The notes beneath the pieces were generated by a model. It made no database searches. It was not told the DNA's origin and worked only from the letters and a program-made list of their open reading frames with translations. Shown here in pieces: positions 21,233 to 63,300 of a DNA stretch of 64,000 bases. A program made the translations under genes and the position numbers. Position 1 is the first letter of the stretch, and every line of letters starts with the position of its first letter. The DNA comes from Candidatus Moraniibacteriota bacterium (lineage in GTDB: Bacteria; Patescibacteriota; Minisyncoccia; Moranbacterales; UBA2206), in the NCBI GenBank assembly GCA_049297495.1, contig JBAQUL010000010.1, positions 12,881 to 76,880 on the forward strand, read 5' to 3'.

Positions 21233-22801
21233 CTATTCAACCCTAAATTTTTTCTTAATCAGCTCCTCTTCCTTTTTCTGTTCTTTTTTAATTTTATCCT
21301 CTGCCATCTTGCGCAAATCCTCTACGTTGCTTTTCGCCAATCCCTTCGCCAACTCTGTCAGTTTTTCTTTCTCGTTCAGCGTTGGATCATCAATCACCCG
21401 TGAAAGCAGCACTGCCAAGATTGCTCCAATTTTTGGCCCTGGTTCTACATTTAATTCGGACATTATATTATTACCATTGAGTTTTAATTGCTTCACGGAA
21501 ATCGGATCATGCGAAACTTTTTCCACCATAAACTGAAAATGTCTAAGTTTATATGGCACAGCTTTTGGCACACCACTGCCGAGCCTGTCCGCAATCCGCA
21601 CATCGATGAGATCGGTTATATTTTCCAAACCGATTTTTTGCACCACACGACGCACACCCGCCTCGCCCACTTCATCAACGTTATAATAAAACATATGGTT
21701 GCGCACGAGCAGCATCACTTTGTCAATTACCTTCCGCGAAAATCGCAAGCGTTCCAAAATAGCTCTTGCCATTTTCTCTCCAATATATTCATGATTATAG
21801 AACGTTGCGTTCTCCCCTTCTCCTCTCTTAGATTTTGGCTTTCCCACATCATGAAGCAATGACGCTAATCGCACTTCCAATTTTTTTGAAGGACATTTTT
21901 CCAGTGACGCTATAAGATGTTTGTATACTGTATTATATGGCCCATAATAGTGATGATGACTTTGCATCACACCAATTCCACTTTCGATCTCTGGTAAAAT
22001 TATTTTTAAAATTCCCACTTCCTGCAGAAGTTCAATTCCTTTCGCTGGAGTTGATGATAAAATGATTTTTGAAAATTCATCCCGAATTCTTTCTGGCGAA
22101 ATATATTTCAAATTCTCGGCATTTTTTTTAATCGCTAAAAAGGTTTTTTCCTCGATTGTAAATTCCAGTGTCACCGAAAACCGAATCGCCCGCATCATCC
22201 GCAGCGCATCTTCATTAAACCTTTCATTAGCATCCCCCACCGCCCGAATCAATTTATTTTCCAAATCCTCCTGCCCATCAAAATAATCAACAATATCCAG
22301 TCCCCTCTCCTTAACAAGGAGAGGGTTAGGGTGAGGTGAATTTTGATCAAGCTGAGCTCCTACTTTCATCGCCAACGCATTAATTGTAAAATCACGCCTA
22401 GATAAATCCTCCTTCAAAGTTTCCGCAAATCTCACCTCATCTGGATGCCTCTTGTCGGAATAGCTTGATTCAATGCGATAAGTCGTCACTTCCACGACTT
22501 CGACTACTTCTTTTTTTTGTGCTTCTTGATTACTGTCCACTGACTCCTGACTTCTGATTTTAATCCCCACTGTTCCAAACTCATTTTCATAGACGCTGTC
22601 CGGAAAAAGACCCTGCACCTCTTCCGGTCTAGCATTGGTCGCCACGTCCCAGTCTTTCGGCGCCGAACCCAATAGCAAATCCCGCACGCATCCGCCCACG
22701 ACATTTGCCTCAAATCCAGCCTTTTCCAGCTTTTCCATCACCGAAATAATCTGGGCAGGCACATCAAATTTGGTCAACTTCTCCTTTTTCATATTCACCA
22801 T
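21233..22801 (-). CDS. cca: CCA-adding enzyme / tRNA nucleotidyltransferase with HD domain
   Basis: Pol-beta-type head GGCVRDLLLG...DWD, RDFTINALA, and a C-terminal HD motif (LLHDVGKP). Confidence 0.8.
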   Translation of the reverse strand: MVNMKKEKLTKFDVPAQIISVMEKLEKAGFEANVVGGCVRDLLLGSAPKDWDVATNARPEEVQGLFPDSVYENEFGTVGIKIRSQESVDSNQEAQKKEVVEVVEVTTYRIESSYSDKRHPDEVRFAETLKEDLSRRDFTINALAMKVGAQLDQNSPHPNPLLVKERGLDIVDYFDGQEDLENKLIRAVGDANERFNEDALRMMRAIRFSVTLEFTIEEKTFLAIKKNAENLKYISPERIRDEFSKIILSSTPAKGIELLQEVGILKIILPEIESGIGVMQSHHHYYGPYNTVYKHLIASLEKCPSKKLEVRLASLLHDVGKPKSKRGEGENATFYNHEYIGEKMARAILERLRFSRKVIDKVMLLVRNHMFYYNVDEVGEAGVRRVVQKIGLENITDLIDVRIADRLGSGVPKAVPYKLRHFQFMVEKVSHDPISVKQLKLNGNNIMSELNVEPGPKIGAILAVLLSRVIDDPTLNEKEKLTELAKGLAKSNVEDLRKMAEDKIKKEQKKEEELIKKKFRVE

Positions 22802-22840: not shown

Positions 22841-22974
22841 ATAGAGACACATTTCAATGCGTCTTGGTGTGAAATTCCGTCTTGGCACGTTATTATATAT
22901 TGGGAATAGCCTAATTTTCACGATTTATTAATTTTACCCCCTCGCCCACAAGACGCATTGAAATGCGTCTCTAT
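22841..22974. promoter_or_regulatory. Long inverted repeat (ATAGAGACACATTTCAATGCGTCTTG ... CAAGACGCATTGAAATGCGTCTCTAT) in the divergent promoter region between cca and the MBL-fold hydrolase gene
   Basis: Arms of about 26 bp, one mismatch, separated by about 80 bp. Each arm is itself a small GACGCATT..AATGCGTC hairpin. Confidence 0.4.
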
Positions 22975-23103: not shown

Positions 23104-23763
23104 ATGAACATTCAATATTATGGCCATTCTTGTTTCAAAATCTCCCTAAAGCCGGCGGGCAGGGGTCAAAATGAGGTCGTTTTTTTCATCGATCCTTTTG
23201 ACAAATCAGTTGGGCTTCGCCCACCGCAAGGACAAGCTGATTTCGTGCTTGTTTCGCATAATCATCCCGATCACAATAACACCGATGCCCTAAAAGGCGA
23301 ACCACGTATCATTGACTTGCCTGGCGAATATTCAGTCAAGGGAGTTAATGTAATCGGCATCCCCTCTTTTCACGATGACGTTCTGGGAAAAGAAAGGGGC
23401 TTAAACACGATATTTCTCATCGATAGCGAGGAAGTGAAAATTTGTCATCTTGGTGATCTCGGATCTGACCTGAACGAAAAGCAACTAGAAAAGATTGGCA
23501 CAGTCAATGTCCTCATGGTTCCAATTGGCGGAAAATACACCATTGACTATAAAAAAGCCATTGAAACGATAAAAAAGATAGAGCCAAGCATTATTATCCC
23601 GATTCATTTCAAAATGAAAAATTCTAGCGTAGATATTGATGATGAAAGTAAATTTTGCTCAGAAATGGGATATTGCGTTAAAGAAAGACCCTCAAAGCTA
23701 AATCTAAAAAGCAAAGATTTAGAGAGCAAAAACATGGAGATATTGATAATGGGCATTGAATAA
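23104..23763 (+). CDS. MBL-fold metallo-hydrolase (UPF0173-like)
   Basis: YGHSCF, LVSHNHPDH metallo-beta-lactamase motif; about 220 aa. Confidence 0.7.
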   Translation: MNIQYYGHSCFKISLKPAGRGQNEVVFFIDPFDKSVGLRPPQGQADFVLVSHNHPDHNNTDALKGEPRIIDLPGEYSVKGVNVIGIPSFHDDVLGKERGLNTIFLIDSEEVKICHLGDLGSDLNEKQLEKIGTVNVLMVPIGGKYTIDYKKAIETIKKIEPSIIIPIHFKMKNSSVDIDDESKFCSEMGYCVKERPSKLNLKSKDLESKNMEILIMGIE

Positions 23764-27616: not shown

Positions 27617-27800
27617 CATCCCCTTCGCCCCTCGAGAGAAGCCTGCCTGCCGGTAGGCAGGGTGGTCGAAGGCCGGATGAGGGCAAGGGCTTTTGATAAA
27701 ATTATTACTATCCCACACAGAACATTTTCATATTTTGATATCACCCTTGCCCTCACCTGTCACGTGCTCGTGACATCCTCTCCCGAAGGGAGAAGAGGGT
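27617..27800. mobile_element. MITE-like composite palindromic element, copy 2 (overlaps the 3' end of the 27728-29776 ORF)
   Basis: CCCCTCGAGAGAAGCCTGCCTGCCGGTAGGCAGGGTGGTCGAAGGCCGGATGAGGGCAAGGG ... CCCTTGCCCTCACCTGTCACGTGCTCGTGACATCCTCTCCCGAAGGGAGAAGAGGG; same modules as copies 1 and 3. Confidence 0.55.
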
Positions 27801-29776
27801 TTTAAGTCAAATTGTTCCACGTGGAACAATTTCCACAAAAATACAATAAACAAAACCAAGCCAACAATCCCCCATTCTGACCAAATTAAAAGAAAAATAT
27901 TATGCACCGGCTGATATTGCCAGATTGCGAGATCAGGAAATAGCCGTTCCGCCTCAAAAATAAACTGTCCGGTTCCAGCCCCAATGATCGGACTCTCCGA
28001 AATGATCCGCTGCGAGATTGAAAGATATAAACCTCTTTCTTCCAGCGATTTCATAAATAAAGCGTAAAATTCAACTCTAAGGAAAAGCAGGCCTATCAAC
28101 ACGGCAAAACCCAAACCTAATAATATTCTAAATTGTTCCACGCTTGCCCGCCGAAGCCTTGGCGCAGGAGGGTGGAACAATTTTTTAATCGTTTCTCTTG
28201 AAATTGTTCCACGCTTGCCCGCCGAAGCCTTGGCGCAGGAGGGTGGAACATTTATGTACACAAGTGCAATGGTTAAAGCTAAAATGGCTGATTTAGAAAA
28301 AGAAAGGAATACCCCAATAACTTGAATCACTAGAGCAAATTTAATTAAATCCAAACCAAATGTTCCACGTGGAACATTTACCCGCATAACACTCTTGAAA
28401 TTGTTCCACGTGGAACAATTTTCGATAGGATCCGCCTGACTAGCTCCAGCCTTAAATTGTTCCACGTGGAACAATTTAATATACAACATTGTCATAATAA
28501 TGGAAAAAAACAAAAATCCACCCAAAAGATTGGGGTGCGGAAATAGGCCATAGGCCCGTATCAATGGATGATAATTAGCGATAATCTTTGCCACTCCGGC
28601 AATATCCGGCCCTATCAAGCTTTCTTTGAGCCAAAATAAGCCGATGGAGTGCTGAAGGATAAATTGAGCAATTCCGATCAAGGCCTGCGTGATTCCTGTG
28701 ATCATGATAATGCCAAAAAATACAATTGCCGCATTAATTGTTCCACGCTTGCCTGCCAGAGCCTTGGCGGAGGTTGGTGGAACAATTTGATAAAAATCTT
28801 TACTGGAAATGTTCCACGTGGAACATTTCCTGAAATCACTACTCCAAAAACCGATACCCACCAAAATGCCACAAACCAGCCAAAATAAAACCTGGCCCTG
28901 CCAGATATCCCATAAATAGTGGTCAAAAAGAGCAATTACTATCAAGCCCAATAAGATTGCACGGAAATATTGAGCCATTTTTGATAAAACACAGTTAAAA
29001 TGTTCCACGCCTGCCTGTCCGGTAGACAGGTGGAACATTTTTTCATTATTAGATCCAGACTCATCCGAAAATGTTCCACGTGGAACATTTTCGACATTTT
29101 CAGATCGCAAATTGTTCCACGTGGAACAATTGAGTATGCAGTATGGCACAAACCTGATAACGATATAGATACATAGAAAATACAGTTCCAAAAACCTAAC
29201 AGATCTATAAATACTAATTGCCTGATTTTCTGACCAATAAACTGATATAAACGACCAGACAATCAGAAGAAGGGGCAATAGGAAAATACCAACTGAGCAA
29301 AAATTGTTCCACCAACCTCCGCTAAGGCTTCGGCAGGCAGGCGTGGAACAAATTGCATTGTATTGTTCGTTGAAATGTTCCACGTGGAACATTTTCCGCA
29401 TTTTGATTAAACAAGGCTTAATATAAGCAAATAATCCTGTGGATAAGTTCTGATTAGGAGCGTTATTCACACTTTCTGGATAATCTATCTTGTGGATAAC
29501 TTCAGAAATATCCTCTCTGCTACTTGACGCTTTAGCTATTTTATCGTATAGTATAGATATAATCCAAACTAGGATCACAAGACATAGAAATATATCGGAA
29601 GCATAAACATATGCGCCGGTGTATTCATTAAAAGCACCTTTCAAAGGAAAGTAAAACATTACTTTTCTAACTCCAAGCGTAAAAGTCAATAAAAACAAAT
29701 AGAAAAGCCAAATGTCTTTTGGTTGTTTTTTGGCTTCTTTCCAGATATTCCCTATCTTTTCAGTTAAATTTGCCAT
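27728..29776 (-). CDS. O-antigen ligase/polymerase-like polytopic membrane protein, interrupted in frame by numerous palindromic repeat insertions in its inter-helix loops
   Basis: A 682-aa open frame with ATG start. Many TM helices and a C-terminal IIGAGTGQF motif typical of O-antigen-ligase-like proteins. Repeated peptide modules MFHVEHF / NVPRGTF / CSTWNN are all translations of one DNA palindrome. Confidence 0.5.
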   Translation of the reverse strand: MANLTEKIGNIWKEAKKQPKDIWLFYLFLLTFTLGVRKVMFYFPLKGAFNEYTGAYVYASDIFLCLVILVWIISILYDKIAKASSSREDISEVIHKIDYPESVNNAPNQNLSTGLFAYIKPCLIKMRKMFHVEHFNEQYNAICSTPACRSLSGGWWNNFCSVGIFLLPLLLIVWSFISVYWSENQAISIYRSVRFLELYFLCIYIVIRFVPYCILNCSTWNNLRSENVENVPRGTFSDESGSNNEKMFHLSTGQAGVEHFNCVLSKMAQYFRAILLGLIVIALFDHYLWDIWQGQVLFWLVCGILVGIGFWSSDFRKCSTWNISSKDFYQIVPPTSAKALAGKRGTINAAIVFFGIIMITGITQALIGIAQFILQHSIGLFWLKESLIGPDIAGVAKIIANYHPLIRAYGLFPHPNLLGGFLFFSIIMTMLYIKLFHVEQFKAGASQADPIENCSTWNNFKSVMRVNVPRGTFGLDLIKFALVIQVIGVFLSFSKSAILALTIALVYINVPPSCAKASAGKRGTISRETIKKLFHPPAPRLRRASVEQFRILLGLGFAVLIGLLFLRVEFYALFMKSLEERGLYLSISQRIISESPIIGAGTGQFIFEAERLFPDLAIWQYQPVHNIFLLIWSEWGIVGLVLFIVFLWKLFHVEQFDLKPSSPFGRGCHEHVTGEGKGDIKI
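27809..29404. repeat. Swarm of about 13 perfect CACGTG-centred palindromes (AAATGTTCCACGTGGAACATTT / AATTGTTCCACGTGGAACAATT), including long variants whose centre is expanded by GCTTGCCCGCCGAAGCCTTGGCGCAGGAGGGTG or GCCTGCCTGTCCGGTAGACAGGTG
   Basis: Copies at about 27809, 28131-28192, 28201-28254, 28358, 28398, 28453, 28735-28796, 28806, 28998-29041, 29068, 29109, 29301-29353, 29383. Irregular spacing; long variants occur in both orientations. Confidence 0.85.
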
Positions 29777-36530: not shown

Positions 36531-36690
36531 AATATCCTCCTCTCCCCTCGGGAGAGGATGTCCGAAGGACAGGTGAGGGCAAGGGCTATAAAATCAAAGA
36601 TAGTCCGAATAAATTAATTCTGGCTTAATTTAACACTCTTACCCTCATCCGGCCTACGGCCACCTTCTCCCGAGGGGAGAAGGGAAAATA
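36531..36690. mobile_element. MITE-like composite palindromic element, copy 3
   Basis: ATATCCTCCTCTCCCCTCGGGAGAGGATGTCCGAAGGACAGGTGAGGGCAAGGG ... CCCTCATCCGGCCTACGGCCACCTTCTCCCGAGGGGAGAAGGG; arms are inverted repeats; located immediately upstream of a tRNA pair. Confidence 0.55.
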
Positions 36691-36699
36691 TAATAATTC

Positions 36700-36775
36700 G
36701 GGCGTGTAGCTCAGTTGGTTAGAGCGCTACATTGACATTGTAGAGGTTTCAGAGGTTCGAGTCCTCTCACGCCCA
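36700..36775 (+). tRNA. tRNA-Val(GAC)
   Basis: Acceptor GGGCGTG/CACGCCC, anticodon loop TTGACAT, T-arm AGAGG-TTCGAGT-CCTCT; slightly long variable region. Confidence 0.7.
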
Positions 36776-36785
36776 CAAATAAAAA

Positions 36786-36857
36786 GGGACCATAGCTCAG
36801 TGGTAGAGCAGGGGACTCATAATCTCTTGGTCGCTGGTTCGAATCCAGCTGGTCCCA
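36786..36857 (+). tRNA. tRNA with CAT anticodon (elongator Met or Ile2/lysidine type; not initiator-like)
   Basis: Acceptor GGGACCA/TGGTCCC, anticodon loop CTCATAA, T-arm GCTGG-TTCGAAT-CCAGC. Anticodon stem lacks the three consecutive G:C pairs of initiator tRNAs. Confidence 0.7.
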
Positions 36858-38007: not shown

Positions 38008-38560
38008 TTTTCCTCTCCTTTTTTGATTTTCTCCGCAGTATAGCCTCTGACCAGTCCACACTATGCAAACCCAGACATTAGCTGATATTTAGTTTTCAAA
38101 CAACTGAGCTATCTAAGAGTCTAGATAAACTCTAGGAGAGACGGAAACTTTTCTGTCTCTCACTAGAATTTACGGTTCAATCTCATGTTCAGTTTGGTCA
38201 TCTCGTCTGTGGATTTCTCTTTTGCAATCAAATAGATAATATTTTTCTTTTTCTTTCTCCGCCTCTTCTTTGGAAGGAAAGTGCCAGAACTGGCTGAGAT
38301 ATTGTCTGGTTTTTTCCGACATAATTGGAACGTCTCCGACAACCATTCCATTATTCAGGATCATTTTCATAGTTTCTTGCTTAATGTTTAGTTCGTTAAG
38401 ATTTGGCTGAGCTTCTTTTTCCCCCGTTTTATCTTAACAACCTAGTATATACCAAAACCGCCCTGATGTCATATATGTCGACAAGGATATTTTTTGACTA
38501 ACTTATTGCTTTAGTATAGAATAATTATAGTTGTCTGATTTTCGGACATAATACTAAATA

Positions 38561-44775: not shown

Positions 44776-44832
44776 ACATTACTAATGCAAGACATATTAA
44801 GTCTTGCATTTTAGTTTTATCCTCCATTTTTT

Positions 44833-44958
44833 GTCATCCTGAGCGAAGCCGAAGGATCTACCATGAGCTATCCTAGGCGTAGCTATAATTGCAAAGTTTA
44901 CGATAACAGTAAGTAGATCCTTCGACTTCGTCCGAGTACGGACTTCGCTCAGGATGAC
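44833..44958. repeat. 126-bp hairpin element with terminal inverted repeats GTCATCCTGAGCGAAG...GGATCTAC / GTAGATCC...CTTCGCTCAGGATGAC, followed by a T7 run (MITE-like; probably also the rpsO terminator)
   Basis: Seen directly. Arms of about 25 bp with an internal asymmetric bulge, followed by CACCTCTTTTTTT. Confidence 0.55.
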
Positions 44959-44992
44959 ACCTCTTTTTTTATTAACAAATAAACAAAAAATT

Positions 44993-45490
44993 ATGAGCAT
45001 TTACAAAGAACAGCGCATCGGTGTTTTAGTCGACATCCAAAACCTCTATTACAGTGCCAAAGTGCTTTACCAAAAAAAAGTTAACTTTGATCAGGTCTTG
45101 AAATCAGCTGTGGGCGACAGAAAGTTAATCCGCGCCATCGCCTATGGAATCAAAACGCTCGAAGGTCAAGAAGAAAAGTTTTTTGATGCTTTGGAAAAAG
45201 TTGGCTATGAGGTCAAAACCAAGGATCTACAAATCTTCCCAGGCGGAGCCAAGAAAGGGGATTGGGACGTGGGGATCGCTGTAGACGCCATCAAAATGTC
45301 CAAAACGCTCGACGCAATAGTATTGGTTTCTGGCGATGGCGATTATATCCCCCTAGTAAAATATATTCAATCAACAACAGGCTGCCGCGTTGAAGGAATG
45401 GCCTTTATGGAATCAACGAGTAATAAGCTAGTTGAGGAATTAGATAATTTCATCAATTTGAGCGAAAACAAGAAGAAATATTTAATTTAA
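44993..45490 (+). CDS. NYN-domain (LabA-like) protein
   Basis: RIGVLVDIQNLYYS, AIVLVSGDGDYIPLV match the NYN/LabA nuclease-fold pattern. ATG at 44993 preferred over the ORF-track start at 44954. Confidence 0.6.
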   Translation: MSIYKEQRIGVLVDIQNLYYSAKVLYQKKVNFDQVLKSAVGDRKLIRAIAYGIKTLEGQEEKFFDALEKVGYEVKTKDLQIFPGGAKKGDWDVGIAVDAIKMSKTLDAIVLVSGDGDYIPLVKYIQSTTGCRVEGMAFMESTSNKLVEELDNFINLSENKKKYLI

Positions 45491-54392: not shown

Positions 54393-55313
54393 ATGGCAAC
54401 GATTAAACCAAAAAGGTCCTTAGGTCAAAATTTTCTCCGAGACATTGCTGTTTTGGATCGGATTATAGAATCTGCTAATTTAAGTAAGGGTGATCTTGTG
54501 ATTGAAGTTGGACCAGGAGAGGGCGTTCTCTCTATTGAACTTGCAAAGCGAGTTAATAAATTGATAATGGTGGAGAAAGATGAGGAATTAGCGAAAAAGA
54601 CCGCGACCAATTTCAAATTTAAAATTTCCAATGACAAATCAAACCCAAATGACAAAAATTTAAATCCCAAAAGTAATGCCACGATAATAATTGGCGATAT
54701 TTTAGAGATTAACTTACCGGAATTGATTGAGGTAGAGACGCAGCACCGTTGCGTCTCGAAAAATGTCAACACCAAGACGCAGCAGTGCTGCGTCTCTACA
54801 GACATCGATAATTATCAATACAAAGTCATCGCCAATATTCCGTATTACATCACCTCTCCAATTATTCGATTATTCCTAGAAACCAAATATCCGCCAACAG
54901 AAATGCTGCTGATGGTACAAAAAGAGGTGGCTGAGCGTATCTGCGCCAAAGCGGGAAAACTAAGCATCCTCGCTCTGTCTGTCCAATATTATGCCACGCC
55001 GGAATTGCTTTTTACTGTTCCAAGGGCTGCATTTTTCCCTGTGCCAGAGGTTGATAGTGCGGTTATTAGAATAACGAGAAATGAAAGGCCTGCCTGCGCC
55101 AAAACTTCGACGGGTGAAACAAAAAAGTTTTTTAAGCTTGTCAAAGCGGGATTTTCCGCTAAAAGAAAAACGCTAGTTAACAATCTTTCCAGCAGCTTGC
55201 AACTAGAAAAAGCTATTATCGAAGAAAAATTAAAACAAATTGGTATTTCTCCAAAGCAAAGAGCACAAGAATTACAATTGGAAGATTGGAAAAATCTAAC
55301 TAAATCTCTGTAG
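54393..55313 (+). CDS. rsmA: 16S rRNA (adenine1518/1519-N6)-dimethyltransferase RsmA/KsgA, carrying an in-frame insertion of about 40 aa that contains two DNA hairpins
   Basis: QNFL, VIEVGPGEGVLS (SAM motif I), ANIPYYITSPI (motif IV). Insertion ...ETQHRCVSKNVNTKTQQCCVSTD... is encoded by hairpins AGAGACGCAGCACCGTTGCGTCTCG (54735-54759) and AGACGCAGCAGTGCTGCGTCT (54774-54797). Confidence 0.8.
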   Translation: MATIKPKRSLGQNFLRDIAVLDRIIESANLSKGDLVIEVGPGEGVLSIELAKRVNKLIMVEKDEELAKKTATNFKFKISNDKSNPNDKNLNPKSNATIIIGDILEINLPELIEVETQHRCVSKNVNTKTQQCCVSTDIDNYQYKVIANIPYYITSPIIRLFLETKYPPTEMLLMVQKEVAERICAKAGKLSILALSVQYYATPELLFTVPRAAFFPVPEVDSAVIRITRNERPACAKTSTGETKKFFKLVKAGFSAKRKTLVNNLSSSLQLEKAIIEEKLKQIGISPKQRAQELQLEDWKNLTKSL

Positions 55314-55322
55314 GGGAAAGGA

Positions 55323-56933
55323 TTAACCAAAAATAATTTTCACCGCGAGAAGGCCATAAAGAGCGACCACGGCCAAAATCCACCAAAAGACACGCCTTGG
55401 GTGGATTTTTTTGTTGATCGTAATCAAAAAAGCCGCACTACCAAACAAAATCGCCCACCAAAAAAGCCGAAATTCATTAAGGAAAAAAATGCTTAACATG
55501 AATGAGATAAAGATCCCTGATGCCACGATTAGGCGTCCTTTTTCTTCTCCAAAAATTACTGGGACAGTGTGTACGCCGTCTTTTTTGTCGCCTTCAATAT
55601 CTTTAAAATCTTTTATTGGCAATGAAAATGTATATGCGATGATTAGCAGAAAAATCACGCGCCAAGACAGATTAGTGATGGTTTGATCTGGTGAGAAAAA
55701 AATAAAGCCGGAAAAAAACACTGTGAGCAATGTTAATGCGCTGAGCAAAGAAGCAATGAGCGCAAATCTTTTCAAACGAAATGGTTCCGCTGAATAAAAC
55801 CAGGCCATAATCTGATACACCAAAAACAATATCCCAAACTTATAGTGCACCAATAGCCCACCAACAAGCGAAAGAAAAAACATAATAGCACCCAACTGCG
55901 CATATTGACTAAAAGTGAAAATGCCCTTTTGCAGCGGTCTCTCTGGATTGGAAAGCATATCCACGCGATAATCAAAAATATCATTAACGACTACCGACGC
56001 CTCCCAGGCAAGAAGCACGCTACTCAAAATCACAACTACAGCCAAAAAGGAGAATAGATTTAAATTAAAATTTTCCGGATACGTAATAAGTCCTATCCCA
56101 AGCCCTAAAAACAGTAAGCCCCCATGGAAGATAACCTGTGGATAACGAAAATTGCGTATCACTGACCAGAACATTTTCGATTCTGACTTCCAAAAGAAAT
56201 AGCCTAAAATAGCCAAACTGAGAGGAAAATAGATTAAATTCAAATTGTGGGCCAAGGTATAAGCCGGATCAGAAAGTGCAATACCAAGATACTGAGCCTT
56301 GGCGAAGAATTGAACGATTTCAAATGAATGCAGAGAAAAAACTGCTTTTTGCTCAATCAAGCGAAAAAAATAATAGCACAGCGAAGGAAAAGCAGCCATA
56401 AAAAATAATGCGGAATATGTGCCAAATGCAGCAAAAATGCTCCTTGAGACTTTTTTCGTCTTTATTCCAACCAAAGCGGTCATTACCAATATCCCAATAA
56501 TAAAAGTGATTTTCGTGCCAAAATACACTACTCCGGAAGGAAGATGGCCAAAAATAGTCACATATTGCCAAAACAAATCAACTGGTGTGCTTATGAGATA
56601 GAAACTCCAAAACACTTCGCTTCCCGTTCGAATGAGATCAAAAATAGGCGGAAAAATGATTGCCAGTGACGCCCAAAGCATAAGATAGGCAAGAATAAAC
56701 GGCTTTTTTTTAAGAATTACACTCAAGACAAGCCAAACAAGAGCAAAGGAGAGAAAAAAGAAAAGTAAGTTATGAATATCCATTACTAAATCAAACAAGG
56801 GAGAATTTGATTTCGCGATAAATTTGTCTATATAGAGACGCAAAGCAATGATCCCAGAAAAATTCAGACACCAAAAAGCCGGATCAATCTTTTTGCCCAA
56901 AATATTATCAATAAATTTCACCAGTTTATCCAT
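55323..56933 (-). CDS. Fusion membrane protein: N-terminal polytopic domain of unknown function + C-terminal UbiA-family prenyltransferase domain
   Basis: UbiA motif NDIFDYRVD (NDxxDxxxD) and a second Asp-rich region (DFKDIEGDKKDG) in the C-terminal half. The ORF-track start at 57014 is TTG; first in-frame ATG at 56933. Confidence 0.55.
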   Translation of the reverse strand: MDKLVKFIDNILGKKIDPAFWCLNFSGIIALRLYIDKFIAKSNSPLFDLVMDIHNLLFFFLSFALVWLVLSVILKKKPFILAYLMLWASLAIIFPPIFDLIRTGSEVFWSFYLISTPVDLFWQYVTIFGHLPSGVVYFGTKITFIIGILVMTALVGIKTKKVSRSIFAAFGTYSALFFMAAFPSLCYYFFRLIEQKAVFSLHSFEIVQFFAKAQYLGIALSDPAYTLAHNLNLIYFPLSLAILGYFFWKSESKMFWSVIRNFRYPQVIFHGGLLFLGLGIGLITYPENFNLNLFSFLAVVVILSSVLLAWEASVVVNDIFDYRVDMLSNPERPLQKGIFTFSQYAQLGAIMFFLSLVGGLLVHYKFGILFLVYQIMAWFYSAEPFRLKRFALIASLLSALTLLTVFFSGFIFFSPDQTITNLSWRVIFLLIIAYTFSLPIKDFKDIEGDKKDGVHTVPVIFGEEKGRLIVASGIFISFMLSIFFLNEFRLFWWAILFGSAAFLITINKKIHPRRVFWWILAVVALYGLLAVKIIFG

Positions 56934-57165
56934 AAGTTCGGTTCGCGTATTCGTTTGTTCAATTATACAGAAAGACCACAAAAAAATAAAGGCTTCAAAA
57001 AACAAAAACACCAACCCTTTTGTCGATTAATCTGAGTTAATAAGCAGCAAATATCAAAAAATATATATGCTTACTTTTTGAAACAAAAGTAACTTTAAAT
57101 TTGATTTCGAAAAATCCATTTTGGCCCTTCACAGAGTGACAACTATTGTGGTATAATTTCGCTAT

Positions 57166-62802: not shown

Positions 62803-62901
62803 CCTCATGCAGCATGCAGCATGAAACATATAACAAAAAACTAGCGAATATGCTATCTCTTGTTGTCTGCTTCATGTTTCATGCTTCATGTTTCATGCTT
62901 C

Positions 62902-63300
62902 ATGATATTCAACGTCCCACAATTTATTGATATTGAAGACAAGATTGTCGGTCCACTCACCGCCAAGCAACTCGGCTGGATTGCAGCCGGTGCGGTCCTT
63001 GCATTGCTTAGTTATGCAATGTTCGACAAATCAACCTTCATCGTTTCTGCCCTTATTCTCGCAGTAATTTTTGGAGCGCTTGCCTTTTATCGTCCCTATA
63101 ACCAACCCCTCATTAAGTTTATCCTATCCTCAATCGCATTTATTATCCGCCCAAAAATGTATATTTGGAGACGAACGCCAGAAAAAGTTCAAAGAACCGT
63201 CGCTAAGAAAGAAGACAATGCGCCAATAATCACCAGAAAGAAGTTCGATTCCCAGAAAGTCTCTGACATCTCAGCTCTTCTTGATCACCGAAGTCGCTAG
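62902..63300 (+). CDS. PrgI/VirB3-like small two-TM membrane protein
   Basis: MIFNVPQFIDIEDKIVGPLTAKQLGWIAAGAVLALLSY... resembles the conserved N-terminal block of PrgI-family proteins that sit immediately upstream of VirB4 ATPases. The ORF-track start at 62860 is TTG, inside a tandem repeat. Confidence 0.4.
   Translation: MIFNVPQFIDIEDKIVGPLTAKQLGWIAAGAVLALLSYAMFDKSTFIVSALILAVIFGALAFYRPYNQPLIKFILSSIAFIIRPKMYIWRRTPEKVQRTVAKKEDNAPIITRKKFDSQKVSDISALLDHRSR

Follow-up and report, generated by a model that had tools for sequence, protein, structure and literature searches.

We identified an in-frame palindromic insert within the rsmA/ksgA gene (16S rRNA adenine dimethyltransferase) of a Candidatus Moraniibacteriota genome and found that it is probably a copy of a known family of repetitive extragenic palindromic (REP) sequences. 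The DNA analyzed, here termed the window, was a 64,000-nt stretch of contig JBAQUL010000010.1 (assembly GCA_049297495.1; positions 12,881 to 76,880 of the forward strand). The insert has the GTAG-tagged build GTAGAGACG...CGTCTC(TAC) of the repeats that are cognate to REP-associated tyrosine transposases (RAYT, also termed TnpA_REP) of subclass 2.4, and most likely landed as an inverted dimer, in frame, within a surface loop of KsgA. This assignment was based on the structure of the insert, the compensatory changes found in related ksgA alleles, the distribution of the same unit across bacterial phyla, and the recurrent association of the unit with RAYT-like genes.

The host gene was an intact open reading frame (ORF) of 306 aa on the plus strand (54393 to 55313). 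Its product matched the Pfam RrnaAD domain over residues 6 to 305 (2.6e-51) and the Bacillus subtilis KsgA structures in PDB (3e-43), and a protein identical to it carries the RsmA annotation in a Candidatus Moranbacteria metagenome-assembled genome. The S-adenosylmethionine (SAM)-binding GxGxG motif was present as GPGEG (residues 40 to 44) and the N[IL]PY motif as NIPYY, with the latter and the invariant columns retained across an alignment of 30 homologues; the domain, the two motifs, and the uninterrupted frame together identify the product as KsgA/RsmA. When compared with B. subtilis KsgA, two separate insertions were found between the SAM and NIPY motifs, at residues ~72 to 90 and 114 to 136. 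The palindromic insertion is the second of these and adds 23 aa (VETQHRCVSKNVNTKTQQCCVST), encoded by 54732 to 54800 (69 nt, exactly 23 codons). A first-pass annotation, made by a model from the letters of this DNA, had described two hairpins read in frame within an insertion of about 40 aa in an essential gene. Both hairpins and their in-frame placement were recovered, while the figure of about 40 aa was found to be the sum of the two separate insertions; in addition, KsgA is universally conserved, yet not strictly essential in Escherichia coli. An AlphaFold2 model built on the 30 homologues (pLDDT 82, pTM 0.79) preserved the KsgA fold. In this model, residues 114 to 121 lengthen a surface helix and residues 122 to 136 form a loop, with pLDDT below 50, immediately ahead of the strand preceding NIPYY, such that the insert is predicted to occupy a peripheral position in a surface loop between strand beta4 and the NIPY motif. 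The other variable site (54606 to 54662, residues ~72 to 90) was a distinct AT-rich segment that encodes NFKFKISNDKSNPNDKNLN and has internal inverted repeats; other relatives have DSRLRGNDK or ASRLPARQAGLRGNN at this location, and residues 83 to 89 were modeled with pLDDT below 50.

The two hairpins, GAGACGCA-N7-TGCGTCTC (54735 to 54757) and AGACGCAGCA-G-TGCTGCGTCT (54775 to 54795), have stems of 8 to 10 bp. The full element was found to extend from 54732 to 54799, slightly beyond the hairpins as first called, with one extra base completing the 23 codons. The hairpins proved to be inverted copies of each other: the 25-nt terminal arms (GTAGAGACGCAGCACCGTTGCGTCT at 54732 to 54756 and AGACGCAGCAGTGCTGCGTCTCTAC at 54775 to 54799) are 92% complementary across an 18-nt gap, the outer ends read GTAGAGACG...CGTCTCTAC, and each unit is built as GTAGAGACG-(variable palindrome)-CGTCTC. 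The left REP unit (54732 to 54757, plus strand) begins with a GTAG foot (54732 to 54735), followed by an outer stem of AGACG/CGTCT and an inner stem of CAGC/GTTG with one G.T mismatch. A 16-nt spacer (GAAAAATGTCAACACC, 54758 to 54773) separates it from the right REP unit (54774 to 54799, minus strand; reverse complement GTAGAGACGCAGCACTGCTGCGTCTT), which ends in a CTAC foot (54796 to 54799). Both feet conform to the GT[AG]G signature, and each unit is a short, fully paired stem-loop with a constant base and a variable, complementary upper stem, as is typical of REPs. The insert as a whole (54732 to 54800), which is missing from empty-site homologues, is therefore described as two GTAG-tagged REP units joined as an inverted dimer, in which both feet point outward (an HH dimer, or REPIN-like element). 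The two inverted REPs and their short spacer are predicted to form one long hairpin, as the minimum-energy fold of the 81-nt stretch was a single hairpin that paired the left arm with the right arm rather than two local hairpins. This stretch was calculated at −25.3 kcal/mol (z = −6.7) as single-stranded DNA and −44.4 kcal/mol (z = −8.4) as RNA.

A second family copy of the same build was located between genes at 22841 to 22974, with its two inverted REP units separated by an 82-nt spacer. Its left unit (ATAGAGACACATTTCAATGCGTCTTG, 22841 to 22866) has a stem with one mismatch, and its right unit (CAAGACGCATTGAAATGCGTCTCTAT) spans 22949 to 22974. The kinship between this inverted repeat and the ksgA hairpins, already proposed in the first-pass annotation, was upheld: AGACGCA-N(1-20)-TGCGTCT occurred 3 times in the window versus 0 in 100 shuffles, and two of the matches are the ksgA hairpins while the third is the right arm in the intergenic element. 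AGACGCA was detected 14 times in the window versus 5 expected, with 7 of the 14 inside the two elements. The intergenic copy occupies a 302-bp gap between divergent ORFs, namely a PolyA_pol/HD ORF of CCA-adding-enzyme type (21233 to 22801, minus strand) and a Lactamase_B_3 ORF of the metallo-beta-lactamase (MBL) fold (23104 to 23763, plus strand). No Rfam match was obtained for either element at gathering thresholds, with the window yielding only tRNAs, and viral contigs scanned with the right-arm pattern gave 0 matches. Two further sites in the window recall parts of the unit: (i) an intergenic hairpin at 38135 to 38162 (GGAGAGACGGAAAC / TTTCTGTCTCTC) within a CTAG...CTAG palindrome, which may represent a decayed member of the REP family or else a terminator; and (ii) a solitary head (ATAGAGACGCA, 56832 to 56842) with no partner arm inside a UbiA-family ORF (55323 to 57014, minus strand), which may be due to chance or a remnant.

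The insertion site was surveyed in the 120 closest KsgA homologues. The commonest state was a 7-residue linker, E/K-QNNF-x-N, with many close homologues having E-QNNFTN only (the empty allele); the insertion thus varies among lineages, as had been anticipated. Family-derived alleles were of three kinds: (i) dimers, in P0001, P0004, P0009, and P0024, with P0004 carrying the same dimer and P0009 and P0024 other stems; (ii) half alleles with the right unit only, in P0003, P0006, and P0013; and (iii) single "double-foot" alleles (VETxxxxVST), in P0028, P0034, P0052, P0058, P0072, P0086, P0096, and P0101. The single double-foot units are 29- to 30-nt palindromes with both feet, as confirmed at the DNA level in locus L252 (GTAGAGACGCAGCACTGCTGCGTCTCTAC). 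In a neighbor-joining tree, the insert-bearing ksgA alleles were dispersed among the empty ones. No consistent target-site duplication was found at the ksgA insert when the window, L001, L007, and L252 were compared, with the flanks of the window insert (...TTGAG before it and AGACA after it) differing in the other three.

The stems of these alleles were found to differ in a complementary manner. In the window and L001, both units have AGACG-CAGC...GCTG-CGTCT, with L001 having the perfect version GCAGC-ACC-GCTGC; in L007, L008, and L003 the stems are AGACG-AGGC...GCCT-CGTCT; and in L009 the stem is AGACG-CCCC-AGC-GGGG-CGTCT. When nine right-hand units were aligned, 100% of the cells were paired, 4 of the 9 pairs were altered on both sides, and the observed level of covariation was attained in 0 of 500 shuffles. 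Instead of being conserved along with the DNA pairing, the encoded peptides diverged (VETQHRCVS versus VETRHRLVL; KTQQCCVST, KTRQCLVST, and KTPQRGVST), which rules out conservation of the insert at the protein level and makes selection on the insert peptide unlikely. The spacer between the units was conserved neither in sequence nor in length among relatives (15 to 33 nt). The carriers were found to remain palindromic through compensatory changes, rather than to hold the segment in non-palindromic codons as a conserved protein loop. Concerted, pair-preserving changes in all four half-sites are best explained by replacement with a copy of another sub-family or by hairpin-templated correction.

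The same unit was found to be widespread in bacteria. When one genome per species was scanned with the pattern TAGAGACG-N9-13-CGTCT-N25-55-CGTCTCTA, at least 120 loci were detected (chance expectation ~40 by our own estimate), with the matches listed including Acidobacteriota, Bacteroidota, Cyanobacteria, Chloroflexota, Planctomycetota, Patescibacteria, and others. Among the 327 units of the matches listed, 312 have a G before TAG, a base left unspecified in the search, which completes the GTAG; the inner 10 to 11 nt were palindromic (3.29 nested pairs versus 0.43 when shuffled) and represented 167 distinct sequences. These results define the family as a constant GTAG foot and outer stem (AGACG/CGTCT) with a freely covarying upper stem. 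The dimers were mostly extragenic, with 21 of 104 in the matches listed residing within long ORFs versus 67% for random positions; the ksgA copy is one of the intragenic exceptions already known for REPs. Other in-frame intragenic copies were detected in genes encoding CysRS (in a Patescibacteria genome), ValRS, PurL, an MmeI-type enzyme, and a glycosyltransferase. A metagenome scan with the Q-type stem pattern also returned at least 120 loci (L130 to L249), and the matches listed were mostly high-GC contigs from outside the candidate phyla radiation (CPR), with none resembling the window organism. The exact inner stem of the window (GCAGC...GCTGC) was observed to recur in double-foot REPs on metagenome contigs that range from 30% to 70% GC, which indicates that sub-family sequences, too, are common to very different genomes. 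The match to documented repeats extends to sequence identity: the GTAGAGACG...CGTCTCTAC ends are those of subclass-2.4 REPs, with the supplementary REP table of Quentin et al. 2018 (PMC6006769) including GTAGAGACGCACGGCCGTGCGTCTCTAC under subclass 2.4 for Chloroflexus aggregans, and supplementary file 2 of the same study containing "gtagagac" 25 times.

The ORFs neighboring the elements were compared all-against-all, and one protein family of ~180 to 220 aa was found to be tied directly to the elements. This family was present in L010, L026, L041, L048, L059, L076 (Candidatus Jacksonbacteria), and L105, and was replicated in the independent metagenome loci L144, L160, L165, L209, and L237. Its members matched the NCBIfam model for REP-associated tyrosine transposase at 1e-15 and 9e-12, under the equivalog cut-off, matched Pfam Y1_Tnp weakly, and have the motifs MPNH[FIVA]H, WQxR[FY][HY]DH, and YIxNNP. 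Most of these RAYT-like genes hold their own GTAGAGACG REP in frame just after the HuH motif (L026, 5305 to 6219; L048, 5704 to 6351; L059, 2526 to 3248; L076, 5591 to 6172; L105, 1226 to 1906; L144, 10615 to 11367; and L160, 3807 to 4445). The motifs are exactly those published for subclass 2.4, and the arrangement likewise matches the published one, in which REPs are inserted in frame within tnpA_REP and leave the ORF unbroken (PMC6006769). Locus L076 provides an example of the REP and RAYT system within a CPR genome.

In the mechanism we propose, the unit would act as a single-stranded DNA hairpin that RAYT recognizes and cleaves at the GTAG foot and outer stem (AGACG/CGTCT), with the inner stem and loop free to vary provided that pairing holds. 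Copies would be spread or replaced in trans by RAYT, or via recombination between alleles. Survival of a copy within a gene would require (i) a length that is a multiple of three; (ii) a stop-free frame; and (iii) a tolerant loop. The frame GTA-GAG-ACG...GTC-TCT-ACN would provide such a stop-free reading (VET...VST), and the 69-nt length and stop-free frame of the ksgA insert may explain its retention. By this account, a RAYT has presumably been active in this Moranbacteria lineage, and may be so still, and the insert-bearing KsgA protein is presumably functional.

Several findings weigh against assignment of the ksgA insert to a RAYT-mobilized REP family. No RAYT gene was detected by hmmsearch with the RAYT-cluster profile in the 64-kb window or in ~113 kb of DNA from Moranbacteria relatives (including L001 to L009 and L250 to L252), and no named Moranbacteria were among the top 120 homologues of the Jacksonbacteria RAYT, where Microgenomates and Magasanikbacteria were named. 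Two long-contig RAYT homologues (P0164 and P0190) had gene neighborhoods that were not CPR-like. Copy number was low, with two clear copies and one or two degenerate candidates in 64 kb, and the flanks of the relatives (~113 kb) had no family copies other than those in ksgA. Furthermore, the feet of the 22841 to 22974 element are ATAG/CTAT, not GTAG. The route by which the insert arrived is also affected, as the window ksgA was found to be a mosaic: alignment columns 40 to 120 are nearest the empty-site L005 clade (~68% nucleotide identity versus ~50 to 60% for others), while the 5′ end and the 3′ half are nearest L003 of the insert-bearing clade (82 to 88%). This pattern suggests recombination between alleles of the two clades, and the insert may thus have come by recombination and not by transposition in this lineage. 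The claim that the window allele represents an independent insertion is weakened accordingly, since the 3′ half of the mosaic resembles the insert-bearing clade. The residues after the insert also differ (DIDNYQ versus QNNFTN in empty alleles), which blurs the original junction. Finally, mobilization of REPs by RAYTs is itself still a hypothesis and their dissemination poorly understood, according to Corneloup et al. 2021 (PMC8266576).

Other explanations were weighed against the same data. The 25-nt terminal inverted arms and small size of the ksgA element, together with a second copy that has a longer internal segment at 22841 to 22974, would suit a classical miniature inverted-repeat transposable element, i.e., an element bounded by terminal inverted repeats that has no transposase of its own and is moved in cut-and-paste fashion by a DDE enzyme. 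Such an origin is nevertheless very unlikely given the lack of a consistent target-site duplication described above, the finding that each presumed terminal repeat is itself a GTAG-footed hairpin, the existence of solitary 29-nt units (L252), and the identity of the recurrent neighbor elsewhere as a Y1/HUH RAYT, not a DDE enzyme. The first-pass annotation had instead proposed a recognition site for a restriction-modification enzyme or a DNA-binding protein. The stem does contain CGTCTC/GAGACG and GACGC, the type IIS sites of BsmBI/Esp3I and HgaI, respectively, and the 22841 copy lies within a divergent promoter region. However, CGTCTC was neither avoided nor enriched (17 in the window versus 12.4 ± 3.3 expected, with 13 outside the elements), no link to restriction-modification was found, and the unit with its GTAG foot is conserved across many phyla, adjoining RAYT-type HUH transposase genes, while its inner stem covaries freely. 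Conservation of this kind is what would be expected if a hairpin, and not a duplex sequence, were being recognized. It is thus highly improbable that the motif serves restriction-modification or another regulator of double-stranded DNA; the proposal of a DNA-binding protein holds only insofar as the repeat family has a RAYT/TnpA_REP as its cognate protein.

A benefit to the host was also considered, in the form of a functional KsgA surface loop (e.g., containing Cys/His) or an mRNA structure that tunes ksgA expression, with the palindromy being either incidental or itself under selection. The insert persists at one site in several diverged lineages, compensatory changes maintain the hairpin, the left-stem G.T pair would be G.U in RNA, and the predicted RNA fold is very stable (−44 kcal/mol), all of which would agree with such a role. 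Against it, the peptide is unconserved where the DNA pairing is conserved, many close relatives are without any insert, the unit is mostly extragenic and otherwise found in unrelated genes of other phyla, and the modeled loop is of low confidence. A host-selected loop or mRNA structure is therefore improbable and is not needed to explain the data. The palindromes could also have formed in place, if template switching or hairpin-templated repair operated at a fragile site, with the likeness to REPs due to convergence. Quasi-palindrome correction by template switching can alter all half-sites in concert, and a concerted half-site change was indeed seen between Q-type and R-type alleles. Convergence on this scale would be hardly credible, as hundreds of units in unrelated phyla, as well as published subclass-2.4 REPs, have exactly this 9-nt head (GTAGAGACG) and this tail (CGTCTCTAC), and a second copy is present elsewhere in the window. 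Template switching may account for how the hairpins are maintained, not for how they originated.

The loop of KsgA that holds the REP dimer was found to carry inserts of other kinds as well. At least five other insert peptide types were detected at this position (NPSPYQGEG; LRPEIIHKL...HPLPKGE; HSERSE...LRLRS/LRMT; RHS...GGIQDD; and VGTGQCPVPT), in homologues P0005, P0012, P0018, P0025, P0030, P0032, P0033, P0040, P0044, P0045, P0063, P0067, P0078, P0081, P0088, P0092, P0098, P0105, and P0117. As judged from the peptides, these inserts resemble what other palindromic repeat families would encode. A more speculative proposal is that the beta4-to-NIPY loop of KsgA in Moranbacteria and related Patescibacteria is an actively targeted landing pad, more than a tolerant site, that receives several apparently unrelated repeat families at the same codon (GTAGAGACG REPs, the VGTGQCPVPT-type GTAG repeat, and the NPSPYQGEG, HSERSE...LRMT, and LRPEIIHKL...HPLPKGE types), or that the REP loop or hairpin has acquired a role in modulating KsgA or 30S maturation in these reduced genomes; we consider either of these doubtful.

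Palindromic repeats of other types were also observed in the window. A 682-aa ORF resembling Wzy_C/O-antigen ligases (27728 to 29776, minus strand) contains at least eight in-frame copies of the palindrome AAATGTTCCACGTGGAACATTT, especially at 28131 to 28253, 28358 to 28477, 28807 to 28828, 29067 to 29131, and 29373 to 29396, with the copies encoding the peptides MFHVEHF, NVPRGTF, and CSTWN. At 28131 to 28253, this palindrome is centrally split by a second element of ~31 nt (peptide PPSCAKASAGKRGTI), i.e., a nested insertion. A different palindromic repeat family is represented at 44832 to 44959, where perfect 17-nt inverted arms (TGTCATCCTGAGCGAAG / CTTCGCTCAGGATGACA) are 94 nt apart and reach the start of an ORF (44954 to 45490). 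In addition, a 61-nt imperfect inverted repeat (36532 to 36689) lies immediately upstream of two tRNA genes (36700 to 36857), and a CATGCAGCATG-rich inverted repeat (62806 to 62904) is close to the window end.

Overall, the odd feature within ksgA can be understood as a typical representative of a repeat system that is already documented, for which no new mechanism or restriction-modification hypothesis is needed. The phenomenon of in-frame REP dimers is already described, and the Moranbacteria genome is a new example that extends it to this CPR lineage and to ksgA. The novelty is modest and consists of the CPR host, a ksgA site that collects several kinds of apparently repeat-derived inserts, and a clear compensatory allele series. 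Literature searches with the exact GTAGAGACG/CGTCTCTAC sequences returned only primer noise, and a search for palindromic in-frame elements in CPR bacteria found no CPR-specific paper. The natural series at one site (empty, dimer, half, and double-foot), with its compensatory stems, should be useful for the study of REP decay and maintenance. Moreover, repeats can be the source of hypervariable "insertions" in the housekeeping proteins of CPR bacteria, which matters for annotation, alignments, phylogenies, and structure prediction.

The ksgA element shares features with several known systems. The GTAG-tagged REPs of Di Nocera et al. 2013 (PMC3733652) are short stem-loops that form HH dimers 20 to 100 bp apart, have G.T pairs, are divided into sub-families that differ by complementary stem changes, and, when intragenic, encode 20 to 30 aa in housekeeping genes, including those of tRNA synthetases. 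The ksgA element has the GTAG tag, HH dimer, complementary stem changes, G.T pair, and coding length within a housekeeping gene in common with these REPs, yet GTAGAGAC was not found among their 24 families in the portions of the text and supplements covered, and that study includes no CPR genomes and reports no ksgA case. Like the REPINs of Bertels and Rainey 2011 (PMC3116915), which were proposed as the unit mobilized by RAYT, the element consists of two inverted REPs and a spacer that form one long hairpin; REPINs, however, are defined by the population that they form within a genome, which numbers tens to hundreds of near-identical, extragenic copies in Pseudomonas and related bacteria, whereas two clear copies were found here in 64 kb. 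Rickettsia palindromic elements (RPEs; references 13 and 14 in PMC3733652) are similarly in frame in conserved protein genes at fold-compatible positions, but they differ in sequence (with RPE-4/6 being CGTC-tagged and RPE-1 longer) and in phylum, and are not known to be linked to a RAYT. The element also recalls IS200/IS605 ends, where a Y1 HUH enzyme recognizes subterminal single-stranded DNA hairpins and makes no target duplication; unlike IS200/IS605, which have distinct left and right ends and tnpA/tnpB, it consists of identical GTAG-footed hairpins without cargo. Processing of cognate single-stranded REPs by TnpA_REP in vitro is reported by Corneloup et al. 2021 (PMC8266576). The closest counterpart is provided by TnpA_Y1 subclass 2.4 (group 4 of Bertels), which is found in Cyanobacteria, Bacteroidetes, and scattered other phyla and has both "canonical long" and "double foot" REPs with 5′ GT[AG]G and 3′ C[TC]AC (PMC6006769). 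The present case differs from that system in its host, a Candidatus Moranbacteria member of the CPR, in its target, ksgA, in its low apparent copy number, and in having no cognate RAYT in the sequence examined, and resembles it in sequence family, in distribution across phyla, in the GT[AG]G foot, in the second C[TC]AC foot of single units, and in the in-frame mode of insertion. The same study suggested that a double-foot unit could come from central deletion of an inverted dimer, and the ksgA alleles include both forms, the dimer of the window and the monomer of L252.

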